A DNA stretch of 64,000 nt. Origin: Shigella phage CM8. The stretch lies in sequence record MK962750. The stretch is one strand, 5' to 3'. Both the position numbers and the translations under genes were made by a program. A model generated the notes under the pieces. That model was not told the DNA's origin and made no database searches. It was given only the letters and a program-made list of their open reading frames with translations. Of this stretch, positions 1 to 33,068 are shown one piece after another. Position 1 is the first letter of the stretch. Every line of letters starts with the position of its first letter.

Positions 1-351
1 GAAATCTTTACTGCTGGCAGATTCATTAAGACGTGTACCGTTAACGGTGATTTCGAAAACGTTTGGTTTTTGTCCTCTTTTGATATAGTACTTTTTCTCA
101 TCATATTCCATCCACAGTTCAACTAAAAGTTCTTTCTTATTTGTGCTGTTTATTAATTGACCTTTCTTTACATCACGAAATGGTTTGCCAAAAAGCCCAA
201 ATGTGATGGCTTCTAACATAGTAGACTTACCACCGCCATTTCGGCCAGTAATAAGAGTTTTTTGAACCTTATCTAATTGAATGTCAACTCCATTTTGACC
301 AACTGACATTATATTTTTATATTTTACTCTATTAAGTTTAAATGATTTCAT
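1..351 (-). CDS. 46: Recombination/repair nuclease subunit gp46 (Rad50/SbcC-like ATPase), N-terminal part; gene runs off the window edge
   Basis: Reverse complement from 351 reads MKSFKLNRVKYKNIMSVGQNG...GRNGGGKST (Walker A). Matches recalled T4 gp46 N-terminus; sits next to 47. Confidence 0.9.
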   Translation of the reverse strand, partial: MKSFKLNRVKYKNIMSVGQNGVDIQLDKVQKTLITGRNGGGKSTMLEAITFGLFGKPFRDVKKGQLINSTNKKELLVELWMEYDEKKYYIKRGQKPNVFEITVNGTRLNESASSKDF

Positions 352-366
352 TTTGTATCCAATTGT

Positions 367-1221
367 TCACAATGAAGAAAATTCTTTAACTAAAGCCTGT
401 AATGAAGCCTCTATTGGATATCCATTCTTAACTAACATTTTCCTAAACATTACATGTTTAGGACGATTATATGATATCCACAATTCATACAATTTATCTT
501 TATTATCCCAATGATAGCCTTTTCGTCGAGATGCTATATGAGCTTTTCTAATCTCCGGATTTTTCCAACTAGCAGCTACTGAATTTGATATAGCTATTTT
601 ATATTCAGGTTTTGATAAAGCAGCACGAACAGCCTTTTGGTGTTTAATTTTATTTTCTTCGTTATTAAACCATTCCCTTGAAGCCATTGAAATTTTTTGT
701 TTTGTTTTAAAATTATTTAATCTTTCTTTATTATCTTTCCTATTTTTTGCTACTGAAAAATATTTTAATGCCCTTTCTCTAGCAGCATTTCTATTTTGCG
801 GATTTGAATAATACTGTTGAAGCCTTTTTGATATTGTGTCACTTACATCTTGTTTTATAAAACTATATTCAGCAGCTATTAAATCAACTTCGGCTAAAGA
901 TAAATTTTTATATGTTTTTCCTGACATCATTCTATTTAAAGCATTTAGCATTTTTCCATTTTTACCTTTTGCTAATAAGAAGTGTGCTTTAAAATGATTA
1001 AAATGACTTAAATTAACTAAATTCCATGTAGATTTTAAATATTCAGGAAATATTGATTTAGGAAGCACGTGGTGTGCTTCCGTTTTACCTGGAGTTTTAA
1101 CAGTTGAATTCACAGAAATAAAATTAATGTAAGACTTGGCGTCTTCTTCACTCAACGCTAATTTTTCAACTAATTCCTTTATTAAAAATTCATCATTAAT
1201 GTCAAGTTTAAAATTCTTCAC
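367..1221 (-). CDS. Free-standing HNH homing endonuclease (Mob-family-like)
   Basis: 284-aa ORF with HNH-type motif (HHVLPKS...NLVNLSHFNHFKAHFLLAK) and basic repeat-rich tail. Apparent GTG start overlaps the stop of the upstream ORF. Architecture resembles the ORF at 21097-21876. Confidence 0.65.
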   Translation of the reverse strand: MKNFKLDINDEFLIKELVEKLALSEEDAKSYINFISVNSTVKTPGKTEAHHVLPKSIFPEYLKSTWNLVNLSHFNHFKAHFLLAKGKNGKMLNALNRMMSGKTYKNLSLAEVDLIAAEYSFIKQDVSDTISKRLQQYYSNPQNRNAARERALKYFSVAKNRKDNKERLNNFKTKQKISMASREWFNNEENKIKHQKAVRAALSKPEYKIAISNSVAASWKNPEIRKAHIASRRKGYHWDNKDKLYELWISYNRPKHVMFRKMLVKNGYPIEASLQALVKEFSSL

Positions 1222-1481
1222 AAAAGATTCCTTTTAATGTATCTTTTAGACCATTCTATCATATCATCATAATCTAAAAAGTATTCATCAAATTCAGCCA
1301 TGCAAACAACGCCTTGTGCTGCTTTTGATGTGATATAAATTATTCCAACATATCTAGAATCTTCTTCGGTGTAATCAATATTTGCTATGAATTCATCATT
1401 AATGTCAAATGTCGAAAACTTCACAGTATGCATCCTTAATACAAGATACAGCCATATCTCGTAATGATTTAGGTGTGTCAT
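1218..1481 (-). CDS. Hypothetical protein; start uncertain, overlaps 1405-1668 in another frame
   Basis: Six-frame ORF of 87 aa. Shares a 19-nt DNA stretch (aattcatcattaatgtcaa) with the 5' end of the HNH ORF. Confidence 0.3.
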   Translation of the reverse strand: MTHLNHYEIWLYLVLRMHTVKFSTFDINDEFIANIDYTEEDSRYVGIIYITSKAAQGVVCMAEFDEYFLDYDDMIEWSKRYIKRNLL

Positions 1482-1668
1482 TATCTAAAATGTTGAAGTT
1501 AAAAGATACAGCCCAGTCAGTGCAGACTGTAACCTTTTTAATACAATTATCTTCAACCTCTAGCGGTTCAAACCAATATTCAATAATTTCTTTATGACCA
1601 ATATCATCTTTTACTTCGCATTCAAAATGCTGACTCATCATAACATTTTTAAATTCATCAAAAGTCAT
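1405..1668 (-). CDS. Hypothetical small protein downstream of gene 47
   Basis: 87-aa ORF; its start overlaps the gp47 stop (coupled arrangement). Confidence 0.4.
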   Translation of the reverse strand: MTFDEFKNVMMSQHFECEVKDDIGHKEIIEYWFEPLEVEDNCIKKVTVCTDWAVSFNFNILDNDTPKSLRDMAVSCIKDAYCEVFDI

Positions 1669-2684
1669 TGTGTTGCCTCTACATATAGCTGATTCGCATA
1701 TTGAATAAGTGCTTCACGGTCAGAATCAGTGATGTCTGGAATTGCATTAATGTATTCTTCCATCAACGTCTGAAGAGATTGAACTTCAACTTCTTCACTT
1801 TCATCTGACTCGACAGAGTTATCAATTTTTGACACAACTCGTAATGAATGCACAACTTTTTCTAGTTCAGATTCGAACTTCGTCAGATTTTTGTCTACCT
1901 CAGTTACTATAACACGTACTGATAGATTTGTAAAATCTTTATAGTCAATTTTTCCTTTAAATGGATAATGAATTCTACGATGCCAGGTAGTATTGTTTGG
2001 AATAAATTCCATTCGTTCTGTTTCTGTATCAAACATCCAGAACCCACGAGGGTCATTCTCGTCACCTGCAGTTAGTGTCCATGGTGTCCCAATATATCTG
2101 ACGTTAGCAGCCTCAGAGATAGTATGGAAGTGACCAGACCACACCTCTTTATAAGTCTTAAGGAAATCAGGTTCAAGACCGTGAGATTTCATTCCTTTAT
2201 AAAAATAAAATCCATTCAGCTCCCAGTGACCAACACAAAAAGAAGCAGATGAAGTTTTGATGTGTTCAAGAATTTCACCAGTATTTTCTTCACACATCCA
2301 AGGAATTAAATCAATCAAACATCCGTCAAAATCTACTGTAGTAGGCTTATCATACACTTTAACATTAGGATATTTAGCCAAAAGCTCAGTAGAGGCATTT
2401 GGAGTTAAAGTATTTTTAAAGTGCATATCATGGTTTCCTACAACAGTATGTAGGGTAATACCAGCATCATCAAGCATTTGAACTATTTCACGAGCGAACT
2501 CCATAGTTTTATGTGTGATTGCTTTTCGCACATCAAAAATATCACCATATTGAATCCATACAGTAATTCCATTTTTCTTAGAATATTCTATCGCTTGCTT
2601 AATTCCATCAATTTGAATACCGCGAATCCACTCATCATCGGCTTTAACGCCTAAATGCCAATCACCTAAATTTAAAATTTTCAT
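1665..2684 (-). CDS. 47: Recombination endonuclease subunit gp47 (Mre11-like phosphoesterase)
   Basis: 339-aa ORF with ATG start; metallophosphoesterase motifs (GDWHLG, GDIFD, GNHD); same length as recalled T4 gp47. Confidence 0.93.
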   Translation of the reverse strand: MKILNLGDWHLGVKADDEWIRGIQIDGIKQAIEYSKKNGITVWIQYGDIFDVRKAITHKTMEFAREIVQMLDDAGITLHTVVGNHDMHFKNTLTPNASTELLAKYPNVKVYDKPTTVDFDGCLIDLIPWMCEENTGEILEHIKTSSASFCVGHWELNGFYFYKGMKSHGLEPDFLKTYKEVWSGHFHTISEAANVRYIGTPWTLTAGDENDPRGFWMFDTETERMEFIPNNTTWHRRIHYPFKGKIDYKDFTNLSVRVIVTEVDKNLTKFESELEKVVHSLRVVSKIDNSVESDESEEVEVQSLQTLMEEYINAIPDITDSDREALIQYANQLYVEATQ

Positions 2685-2845
2685 ATATCAAGAACCGTCA
2701 TTGAAATGCAAAATAAAATTATTGAAATAAACCCATCTGGTGTGCTAAAGAACCCAATCCAACATGCTCTAGTGAATAGATAAAATGCAAGAAAAAGTAT
2801 CACATATCCAAGAAATATCATTATATCAAACTCCGTATAAAGCTA

Positions 2846-31752: not shown

Positions 31753-32111
31753 TTAATTTTCCTACAATCACTCACAAACTCTTTCATTGACTCATTTTCA
31801 ATATAAGACATGTAGCTATTATATTCTTTTAATTGTATTTTGTAATCTTTTTTTCTTTGCCAATTTATTTTAAAATTATCATAATGAAAATATAAAATGA
31901 TACCAAAGAATGAAAACAATGAAATAATTTTAGTATAACAAAGCTCACTCCAAACTTCTGTTATATTTACTGTGCCGTCGATGTTTAAAATAAGACAGTC
32001 AATTAACAATCCAAAAAGACTACCTGCAAGAGCTGCAGCCAACGCCACAGCAAAAATTAAAAATGACTCAGAAAACGAATATTTGACTTTATTTAGTTTT
32101 GGCTTTTGCAT
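31749..32111 (-). CDS. Hypothetical membrane protein
   Basis: 120 aa with two hydrophobic helices. Confidence 0.4.
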   Translation of the reverse strand: MQKPKLNKVKYSFSESFLIFAVALAAALAGSLFGLLIDCLILNIDGTVNITEVWSELCYTKIISLFSFFGIILYFHYDNFKINWQRKKDYKIQLKEYNSYMSYIENESMKEFVSDCRKIK

Positions 32112-32506
32112 CGTGATTCCTTAACAAATTTCATAATTTCATCAAATTCATACGCAGCAAGTTTAAGCTGATGTTCCTTTTTAATCTTTTTACACTGTGC
32201 TTTCCAATCACGCACGCGTTTACGATAATGCCTTCCTTGATACCAGTATCCTACCCAATTTACGGGTACTAATAAAAGTGGAACTATTAATGGAAGAATT
32301 AGCATTAACACAAGTATTTCGCCAGAATCAATATCAGTCATAACATCTAAAACACCTCCAATAATCAATAGAATTACAAATGATATGAGTATAACAGGAC
32401 CTATTAACACATCAGTAGAAATTATCTGACGCTTTAATTCATACTTCAACGGTTTACTTGGAAGGTATAGTGATGGCTTTGACATATTCTCTACATTCCT
32501 TAACAA
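32093..32506 (-). CDS. Hypothetical membrane protein
   Basis: 137 aa with two hydrophobic helices. Confidence 0.4.
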   Translation of the reverse strand: MLRNVENMSKPSLYLPSKPLKYELKRQIISTDVLIGPVILISFVILLIIGGVLDVMTDIDSGEILVLMLILPLIVPLLLVPVNWVGYWYQGRHYRKRVRDWKAQCKKIKKEHQLKLAAYEFDEIMKFVKESRCKSQN

Positions 32507-33068
32507 ATTTTTCTAGTAATAAATCACTTTCAAAATTGGGATTTTCTACAAATTTATCAAAAAGATCATCAACAATAGTTAAGATATTCTTTTTACTAAG
32601 AATACGTTTATTTTCATGCTTCGTTTCAGAATCAACTATAAGAGTAAAGAAATATTTCTTGCCCTGAAATTTTACAGTAGTATCAATATAAAATAAATTT
32701 GACTTTTGTAAATTACGTTTAAACCATGCGTCACTTAAACTATAAACACCGAGATAATCAAAATCGTCGTTTAAATAACAAACCGTCCATTCAGGAGAAA
32801 TGAAATCAGTAAATTCAACATCAAAATCACACGTCAATGAATGAATTGATTCAATACTGTTAATGAGTATTCCAGGACGTATTAAAGACTTTTTACCTCT
32901 AGAAAATCTTCCGGAAAGGCTTTCATCAGTTTCATATGAAGACCCCCAATAGTAATTACGTCCTTCTGCCATGCGTTTAAGAGCATTTAGTAATTGGTCT
33001 GGAACATCAACCTGTCTTTGGAACTCTTCAAACATTGAATTGAAATCACTTTGCATTTTCATTTTCAT
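32454..33068 (-). CDS. Hypothetical protein
   Basis: 204-aa ORF with ATG start. Confidence 0.45.
   Translation of the reverse strand: MKMKMQSDFNSMFEEFQRQVDVPDQLLNALKRMAEGRNYYWGSSYETDESLSGRFSRGKKSLIRPGILINSIESIHSLTCDFDVEFTDFISPEWTVCYLNDDFDYLGVYSLSDAWFKRNLQKSNLFYIDTTVKFQGKKYFFTLIVDSETKHENKRILSKKNILTIVDDLFDKFVENPNFESDLLLEKFVKECREYVKAITIPSK

Follow-up and report, generated by a model that had tools for sequence, protein, structure and literature searches.

How can a selfish nuclease gene that brings neither a promoter nor a start codon of its own be housed in an essential gene without killing it? This question is raised by the recombination operon of Shigella phage CM8, seen here in a stretch of 64,000 nucleotides (nt) from sequence record MK962750 (the whole stretch is called the window below), where an open reading frame (ORF) of 284 amino acids (aa) lies at the 5' end of gene 46. 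The favoured answer, to which a probability of about 0.8 is assigned, is that the ORF represents a homing endonuclease gene (HEG), free-standing and of the Mob (HNH) type, carried in an 870-nt cassette that entered gene 46 in frame behind its sixth codon, with a captured start, a replacement start, and a history of homing and nesting. The core anatomy and the family assignment are held with strong confidence; the parts of the history are graded where they are discussed.

Positions 1-2700 of the window are Tequatrovirus (T-even) sequence, with 98% identity to C2-3, RB51/RB68, PP01, and T6. The gene order is 47-46.2-46.1-endonuclease ORF-46, and every gene at this end of the window lies on the minus strand. 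The original prediction had described a 284-aa HNH ORF between genes 46 and 47, and the ORF is found, intact, at 367..1221 on the minus strand. The interval was correct and its site can be given more exactly: as the upstream ORF is T4 gene 46.1, the endonuclease ORF stands between 46.1 and 46 in the 47-46.2-46.1-46 operon. The predicted GTG start overlapping an upstream stop also stands (GTG at 1221..1219 and TGA at 1220..1218, together GTGA), with the amendment that the upstream ORF is 46.1 and starts at GTG 1424 rather than ATG 1481. This GTG is the sole usable start of the endonuclease, with a Shine-Dalgarno sequence (AAAGGAA) 8 nt upstream; the next in-frame ATG is codon 91, past the catalytic motif. 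The parts of the element and of its host gene, in the order of the message, are the following.

1222..1240, minus strand: translation-initiation region of T4 gene 46, with AAAGGAA inside the 3' end of 46.1, here serving the endonuclease (comparison with T4, fPS-65, and RB3).
1204..1221, minus strand: captured gene-46 start GTG AAG AAT TTT AAA CTT, codons 1-6 of T4 gp46 and codons 1-6 of the endonuclease (window against T4; GenBank M10160).
367..1221, minus strand: highly probable free-standing Mob-type HNH homing endonuclease gene, 284 aa, intact (PHROG 655 and 12434; tblastn to MobD/MobC-like genes; protein cluster P0001).
970..1083, minus strand: predicted beta-beta-alpha-metal (HNH) core, residues 47-84, AHHVLPKSIFPEY...WNLVNLSHFNHFKAH (conservation in 50 relatives; AlphaFold; weak McrA alignment).
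352..366, minus strand: 15-nt spacer ACAATTGGATACAAA from the endonuclease stop to the new gene-46 start, with a GGA Shine-Dalgarno-like element; it resembles the Mosigvirus 46.1 3' end, GAATACAT.
334..351, minus strand: replacement gene-46 start ATG AAA TCA TTT AAA CTT (MKSFKL), ATGAAATCATTTAAACTT; 13/18 nt equal the captured copy, and the first 15 nt equal the Mosigvirus gene-46 start.
334..342, no strand assigned: downstream copy of the 9-nt repeat TTTAAACTT, across which the T4-alignment gap slides.
1..351, minus strand: 5' part of gene 46, Rad50/SbcC-like ATPase subunit, ATG at 351; the window begins within the gene (Pfam AAA_23 and SMC_N from residue 6-8).

The insertion is most easily read against T4, which has no endonuclease ORF. 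In T4, the 46.1 stop overlaps the start of gene 46 (...AAAAGGAATCTTTTGTGAAGAATTTTAAACTTAATAGAGTAAAATAT...), and the sequence across the 46.1/46 junction runs ...AAAGGAATCTTTTGTGAAGAATTTTAAACTTAATAGAG. The window equals T4 through GTGAAGAATTTTAAACTT (to AAACTT) and then continues into endonuclease sequence, GACATTAAT...; identity returns at TTTAAACTTAATAGAG (AATAGAG), preceded by ...TCATTGTGAACAATTGGATACAAAATGAAATCA. The insert is thus 870 nt long, in frame, after gene 46 codon 6. It is bounded by a 9-nt direct repeat, TTTAAACTT, at 1204-1212 and 334-342, and the alignment gap can slide over these 9 nt. Upstream of the GTG, 45 nt are identical in the window, T4, fPS-65, and RB3. For T4 g46, GenBank M10160 records the GTG that overlaps the end of 46.1 as the true start ('gtg start codon'). 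Other genera have ATG at this position, followed by a conserved MK(N/S/T)FKLN, and the AAA_23 and SMC_N profiles align from gp46 residues 6-8, in agreement with a start there. RB3, Sf24, and Pinarejo annotate gene 46 from an internal ATG (codon 14; locus position 2004 vs 2046), which drops the conserved N-terminal (M)KNFKLNRVRYQNI and is probably a systematic misannotation of the GTG start.

As read from these alignments, the cassette is without start signals of its own and uses the Shine-Dalgarno sequence, the GTG, and the first six codons of gene 46. Translation of the endonuclease begins from the initiation region that T4 uses for gene 46 and is thereby tied to 46.1 on the 47-46.2-46.1 message; the GTG coupling is a host signal taken over rather than one evolved by the element. 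The essential gp46 is still made, with a near-native N-terminus, because the 3' end of the cassette gives a stop, a spacer, and a fresh ATG with six codons; with this replacement start, gp46 begins MKSFKLNR... rather than (M)KNFKLNR.... The change in the start region, from GTGAAGAAT to ATGAAATCA, is a candidate determinant of cleavage and of resistance to it, as are two features of gene 46 described below, the dinucleotide at 288-289 and the GQN/GGNP patch. The downstream copy of TTTAAACTT matches the Mosigvirus gene-46 start, so it came with the cassette and was not generated on insertion. A transposon-like target-site duplication was considered and rejected, as TTTAAACTT belongs to a longer, imperfect repeat in which 18 nt of the gene-46 start are duplicated with 13/18 matches. 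A scan for sigma-70 promoters gave 18 sites against 14.7 expected, not above chance, and no promoter is assignable within the cassette. RNA folding found no unusual structure at the initiation region of the endonuclease (z = +0.65) or at that of the new gene 46 (z = +0.63); thus, masking of translation by a hairpin is not supported at either.

Homology and a conserved motif point to the Mob family of HNH homing endonucleases, an assignment considered highly likely, with a predicted fold. The endonuclease matches PHROG 655 'homing endonuclease' (7.8e-45) and PHROG 12434 'HNH endonuclease' (4.2e-15). By tblastn it is joined to T4 MobD (E = 2e-11; 30% identical across residues 47-281, or 83% of the query), to mobC of Yersinia phage PST and MobC-type genes between nrdD and nrdG (36%, E about 1e-21; MobC-like match 4e-22), and to many 'Mob-like' genes. 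T4 MobA-E are assigned to the HNH group of the His-Me finger superfamily (PMC5714182). Relatives numbered 6 in a word-indexed protein search and 57 in a profile search, and none of the endonuclease protein was found in an IMG/VR scan. Across 50 aligned relatives, Y31, H50, H51, P54, H76, and H80 are invariant, and E48, L53, K55, N67 (at least 90%), and L71 nearly so. These residues compose a cysteine-less motif, E-x-HHVLPKSIFP...WN-x-V-x-L...H-x-x-x-H, in which H50/H51/N67/H76/H80 supply the HNH pattern HH...N...H...H (catalytic His, structural Asn, metal-binding His). The family profile aligns, weakly, with the McrA HNH motif (6ghc; E-x-HHV-P...N-V-L...H...H; E = 0.17), and its downstream segment aligns with the I-TevI DNA-binding domain (1i3j; E = 0.0034).

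The AlphaFold model (mean predicted local distance difference test, pLDDT, 83.6) has a beta hairpin (strands 47-51 and 68-72) and a helix at 73-84 (pLDDT above 90), followed by further helices; residues 1-10 are the least confident portion of the N-terminal half. PDB searches were uninformative, both as a whole-model comparison and as a single-sequence search of PDB sequences, the latter giving noise only. NUMOD3 (PF07460) is present in many relatives. The window endonuclease has no NUMOD match in Pfam-A or NCBIfam; inspection by eye picks out three degenerate W/Y-x-x-N-P/E-E/Q-x-R/K helical repeats, and the model shows them as helices. The enzyme would have an HNH core at its N-terminus, helical repeats where relatives have NUMOD3, and a further helical domain at its C-terminus. 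Exactly over the catalytic codons E-A-H-H-V-L, a perfect 8-bp GC-rich hairpin was also noticed (1061-1081 in the minus-strand mRNA, -13.6 kcal/mol, z = -5.2). It recurs in the MobC-like paralogue of vB_Eco_F25 and is not seen in the AV112, gene-56-adjacent, or Acinetobacter paralogues; codon choice may have produced this palindrome by accident, or the hairpin may have a role in regulation or processing.

Comparison of the 46-47 interval across T-even genomes, the check called for originally, reveals patchy presence, with about 70 carriers among roughly 570-630 matching Tequatrovirus records (628 in one count of matches). The carriers, about one in eight T4-like coliphage records, include T6 and PP01, and T4 represents an empty site. 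By DNA identity, 54 insert-carrying records match at 99% or more and 15 at 95-99%, while empty sites comprise about 68 T4-type and about 413-428 RB3-type records. At the protein level, the 85-member cluster P0001 matches the endonuclease at 100% (rounded), with one substitution, K196R. Several copies are broken. RB68 has a -1 deletion at 698, shared by Ac3 and presumably also by RB51, whose match is one base shorter and in which no ORF is annotated at this place. In T2, two bases are deleted (-2, at 612-613); the SV76 match also comes in two pieces, with the same total length as in T2. G2133 has a +7 duplication at 954, and a match one base shorter suggests a further frameshift in MLP2. At least three distinct inactivating indels thus occur among the aligned copies; these frameshifted copies are the decay phase expected of a homing endonuclease gene, and the protein is dispensable. 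Presence/absence polymorphism among close relatives and decayed copies, which form part of the functional definition of an HEG, are both found here. Among 11 aligned genomes, the only variation perfectly linked to the insert is the start region and a dinucleotide at 288-289, and the linkage is lost by 244 downstream and by 1311 upstream, so that any co-conversion tract would be short.

The repeat that originally drew attention to the locus needs a separate explanation. The following features are involved.

1218..1424, minus strand: gene 46.1, DUF5487, 68 aa, N-terminus (M)KFSTFDINDEF (GTG start at 1424; Pfam PF17589; T4 and T6 annotate a 207-nt gene).
1390..1408, no strand assigned: 19-nt repeat, source copy, 46.1 codons 6-12, TTGACATTAATGATGAATT on the coding strand (exact match; T4 without the endonuclease has it unchanged).
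1187..1205, no strand assigned: 19-nt repeat, derived copy, endonuclease codons 6-12 (DINDEF; residues unconserved in relatives, low model confidence).

The 19-mer AATTCATCATTAATGTCAA is, as reported, an exact repeat at 1187-1205 and 1390-1408, with exactly two copies in the window, and 0/100 shuffles gave any match. Both ORFs do encode DINDEF, at residues 7-12 in each. The similarity around the 19-mer reaches 45 nt at 78% identity (1178-1222 vs 1381-1425) and covers both GTG starts. The N-terminus of the endonuclease is accordingly a three-part chimera: KNFKL (six codons) of gene 46, DINDEF as in 46.1 codons 7-12, and then the family-conserved body. Alignments on both sides indicate that the 19-mer was most likely copied from 46.1 into the endonuclease. 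The 46.1 proteins of Mosigvirus, Tegunavirus, and an unclassified relative retain H-E/D-F at the DINDEF position, and that of Gaprivervirus TH55 has NLDDEF; the DINDEF residues are missing from endonuclease relatives in the family alignment. Genes 46.2 and 46.1 overlap by 20 nt (1405-1424), and the TGA stop of 46.2 (1407..1405) falls within the 46.1 copy of the 19-mer, so that the first seven codons of 46.1 are doubly constrained.

Three other accounts of the repeat were weighed against this direction of copying. The original prediction took it for the footprint of a mobile insertion, by target-site duplication or integration homology. An exact direct repeat beyond chance, with one copy at the 5' edge of the insert, would fit such a footprint, but the second copy lies 203 nt upstream within 46.1 and not at the other end of the insert, insert-less T4 keeps the 46.1 copy unchanged, and identity is not maintained, as SYGD1 and T2 have substitutions in one or both copies (positions 1398; 1201, 1194). 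The alignment with T4 shows instead an insert bounded by TTTAAACTT within the 18-nt duplicated gene-46 start, so the footprint account is very improbable. Short-homology recombination, its companion proposal, was right in spirit, for the 19-mer appears as a recombination scar, but of an event separate from the insertion. A functional role in cis for the shared 19-45 nt, for example as a translational operator or an mRNA structure at both initiation regions, can hardly be credited. Both copies do lie at +16 to +34 from GTG starts coupled to upstream stops, within the 45-nt similarity. However, the HEG initiation region has no stable structure (z = +0.65), T4 gene 46 uses the same initiation region without the 19-mer, and in SYGD1 and T2 each copy has changed on its own, evidence against a role in cis. 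Finally, the transfer might have run in reverse, with DINDEF native to the endonuclease and passed to Tequatrovirus 46.1 from a former HEG by gene conversion or as an excision relic. Two distant Mob paralogues do start (M/V)DIN, and tblastn alignments begin at query residues 4-6. A native origin on these grounds was nevertheless rejected, as the paralogue DIN is out of register with the following conserved helix; moreover, 46.1 of genera without this HEG keeps H-E/D-F (NLDDEF in TH55), and the AV112 HEG has a different N-terminus, copied from the 46.1 of its own host. The reverse direction is therefore quite unlikely.

The insert is also associated with an allele of gene 46.

280..333, minus strand: gene 46 codons 7-24, 'GQN' allele patch, candidate target or immunity region (genome alignments).

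Codons 7-24 adjoin the Walker A motif on its N-terminal side and occur in two forms. Type B, NRVRYQNIMSVGGNPID (GGNP), is found in RB3, Sf24, Pinarejo, and about 413-428 records (413 at 99% identity or more), including most HEG-less genomes; its protein form is the common Mosigvirus form too (AV117). Type A, NRVKYKNIMSVGQNG[I/V]D (GQN), is found in T4, fPS-65, about 68 HEG-less records, and all six Tequatrovirus carriers aligned. At the dinucleotide 288-289, the six carriers read GGAGTT (6/6), and T4 and fPS-65 read GGGATT. A similar pattern is seen in Mosigvirus, where a related HEG occupies the same interval. The carrier AV112 differs from AV117 by about 13 substitutions, all in gene 46 codons 12-24 (KNIMSVGQNFID), with both sides identical. 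The Mosigvirus vB_EcoM_WFK (WFK; locus 1481-1590) has no HEG, an intact 46.1, and the same GQNF patch as AV112. Its upstream flank has 98.3% identity to AV112 against 93% for AV117, and it is the Mosigvirus counterpart of the empty type A site of T4.

The cassette ends, on sequence comparison, look foreign to their present hosts in both genera. The Tequatrovirus cassette ends in the Mosigvirus-type start ATGAAATCATTTAAA (15/15 nt), preceded by GGATACA vs GAATACA. The Mosigvirus cassette ends at a GTG start preceded by AGGAAAAAT, which is reminiscent of a T4-type 46.1 3' end. Given these foreign-looking ends and the linked patch, the target of the endonuclease is probably in the 46.1/46 junction or in the first ~25 codons of gene 46. 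The role of the patch is ambiguous because HEG-less GQN genomes exist: it may be a susceptible allele, an immune allele, or a mere linked polymorphism. Likewise, the T4 junction would fit exactly a deletion of the cassette through TTTAAACTT, and would equally fit a type A genome that was never invaded.

A course of events can be proposed that accommodates these observations. The enzyme would nick or cut a co-infecting HEG-less genome in or near the first ~25 codons of gene 46, and recombination-dependent repair, itself needing gp46/47, would copy the cassette together with the linked 5' variant of gene 46; this step is modelled on the behaviour of SegF, SegG, and MobE. An ancestral cassette may have been nested in a T4-type 46.1 after codon 12, as its 44%-identical Mosigvirus relative still is. 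An illegitimate or homeologous crossover between two GTGAAG starts would then have moved the cassette to gene 46, restoring 46.1 and leaving the 19-nt scar; GTGAAGTTTTCGACATTT and GTGAAGAATTTTAAACTT match at 12/18 positions, in register. After its spread, the HEG would decay by frameshift, as in the T2, RB51/RB68, and G2133 lineages. The nested history is slightly favoured, and activity of the intact copies at present is judged an even chance. A more ambitious picture is offered tentatively, at less than even odds: the 5' end of gene 46 may be a cross-genus battleground, with two diverged HEG lineages, foreign-looking junctions, and GQN as the immunity allele. The three allele classes met with in both genera (GGNP empty, GQN empty, and GQN with HEG) would be stages of a homing cycle, the T4 5' end a scar of HEG loss via TTTAAACTT, and the stealing of a start with a spare start supplied a general trick of the lineage.

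It may be asked whether the ORF is mobile at all. An immobile relic or a domesticated gene, serving as a competition nuclease or as a spacer for gp46 dosage, could owe its patchiness to ordinary T-even recombination. At least three frameshifted forms occur in viable phages, the intact copies are 98-100% identical so that descent and recombination could spread them, and the shift of gene 46 from a 46.1-coupled GTG to a free ATG could alter the gp46 level. Even so, this account is unlikely, as the 284-aa ORF is intact in most carriers (the cluster has 85 members, and DNA identity is 99% or more in 54 records) and all catalytic-motif residues are kept. Furthermore, a related HEG in the same interval of another genus, with different junctions, indicates repeated targeting of the locus, and HEG-linked variation extends no more than about 45 nt from the insert, the pattern that a narrow co-conversion tract would leave.

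Some results weigh against the mobile Mob-type HEG with its homing and nesting history. The original prediction had staked its HNH assignment on a profile search, and for two libraries that assignment formally fails: the window protein has no HNH family at E <= 0.1 in Pfam-A or at E <= 1 in NCBIfam. PHROG, the MobD/MobC homology, and the conserved motif, however, back HNH. HEG-less genomes with the GQN patch do occur (T4, fPS-65, WFK). The predicted intermediate, 46.1(codons 1-12)::HEG, is absent from 50,697 phage records; the junction query is covered to 80% or more by 70 records, and the near-identical copies listed (at least 98%) all aligned from end to end. The proposed crossover joint has only 2-nt (TT) microhomology. 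Literature searches found no paper describing a 46.1/46 HEG protein.

Nor did those searches find any description of the HEG junctions, of the start it captured, of the segment derived from 46.1, or of the gene-46 alleles linked to it. The ORF is already named 'homing endonuclease' by RefSeq in T6, PP01, RB68, and others. HEG counts per genome only are given by Petrov et al. 2010, with an 'other HNH' HEG in T2, T6, and RB51 (PMC2993671), and no 46/47 element is listed in the review of Edgell et al. 2010 (PMC2988022).

The remaining genes of the operon are the following.

1405..1668, minus strand: gene 46.2, T4_Y03C family (Pfam PF25721, 2.6e-43; T4 annotation).
1665..2684, minus strand: gene 47, with which the operon begins; Mre11/SbcD-like nuclease subunit (339-aa ORF, Metallophos Pfam match; T4, T6, and RB68 annotations concur).

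The start of 46.1 at GTG 1424, not ATG 1481, is indicated by the DUF5487 profile, which opens at residue 20 of the 87-aa reading; RefSeq T4 and T6 concur. Upstream of gene 47, the window has 47.1 as an ordinary 46-aa ORF (2681..2821). In Pinarejo another HNH endonuclease ORF lies directly upstream of gene 47, at the 47.1 position, and PhiZZ23 has an additional annotated 'HNH endonuclease' within the matching 2.7-kb region; given these, the 47/46 region appears to be a recurrent landing zone for HEGs. A GC-rich stem-loop, TAAAGGGCCGAAGCCCTTTA, is located at 2844-2863 between a-gt and 47.1. Its T-run is on the plus strand only, antisense to the local genes, and fPS-65 annotates a terminator at the equivalent position.

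In RB68 (31961-32674), and likewise in Ac3, the interval from the 3' end of gene 46 to 45.2 contains a second annotated homing endonuclease gene, oriented oppositely, so that gene 46 there has HEGs on both flanks; T6 is without it. Over the first 50 kb, Ac3 (OK040907.1) and RB68 (NC_027979.1) are nearly identical save four blocks, at about 8.5-9.4 kb, 18-19 kb, 31.9-35.2 kb, and about 46 kb. The second HEG, gene 46, and the 46.1/46 HEG all fall in the third of these. The inspected Ac3 block (46.1/46 HEG and gene 46) carries mostly synonymous changes toward E. coli codon usage. Its HEG has a GC content of 45% vs 28%, leucine as CTG, and the GTG start changed to GTT, with the RB68 frameshift retained. 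Rather than natural variation, this suggests engineering, or an artefact of synthetic DNA in the assembly.

The element itself is of an ordinary kind, and it is the anatomy of its insertion that is unusually legible. It provides a clear example of how a selfish nuclease gene without promoter or start can be housed in an essential gene without killing it, namely by seizing the ribosome-binding site, start, and first codons of that gene and leaving a replacement set. Moreover, T2 (frameshifted), T4 (empty), and T6 (intact) are standard laboratory phages, so that homing, the cleavage site, gp46 dosage, and phage exclusion are directly testable. The locus also matters for annotation, as the GTG starts of the HEG and of 46.1 are easily missed and the start of gene 46 is inconsistent among several records.

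Among known elements, the closest distinct relative is the Mosigvirus 47-46 HEG of the AV112/SQ17/G2469 type (cluster P0007), with 44-45% aa identity over 91% of the protein, found in 10/155 matching Mosigvirus records. Like the window HEG, it lies in the 47-46 interval in the same orientation, opens with codons of a resident gene, and is GQN-linked. It differs in beginning MTKTDYE, the first seven codons of Mosigvirus 46.1 (AV117, WFK), the rest of 46.1 being replaced; nesting within 46.1 is thus directly observed there. Its stop overlaps the GTG start of gene 46, and the gene-46 start is not duplicated. Since the AV112 start is also borrowed from a resident gene, start-borrowing is a habit of this HEG lineage.

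MobC, MobD, and MobE of T4 share with the window HEG their homology, the cysteine-less E-x-HH-x-LP...N-L...H-x-x-x-H motif, a promoter-less cassette, the orientation of their neighbours, and an operon position by DNA-metabolism genes. Coupling of the start to the stop of an upstream gene, as in this HEG, is reported for mobE/nrdA (PMC2988022). In contrast, the window HEG occupies another locus (46.1/46), lies inside its neighbour's coding sequence with a shared start and six codons, supplies a replacement start, and is not in T4. MobE, furthermore, is demonstrated to be active, whereas the activity of the window HEG is putative.

HNH HEGs that split genes were reportedly described by Bonocora et al. 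in 2011 and Friedrich et al. in 2007, namely T4 mobA in the topoisomerase gene 39/60 and Aeh1 mobE in nrdA. As in those cases, a free-standing HNH HEG stands within an essential reading frame, and the cassette gives signals that keep the host gene functional. Here, however, the split comes after only six codons, which are duplicated, gp46 is a single polypeptide, and the N-terminal stub is fused to the endonuclease. Lastly, the proposed mode of spread resembles the intronless homing of SegF (gene 56) and SegG (gene 32), in that the cut would fall in a neighbouring conserved gene, repair from the carrier would co-convert the flank, and the carrier allele differs near the cut. SegF and SegG differ in being GIY-YIG proteins whose cleavage sites have been mapped and whose marker exclusion has been measured.

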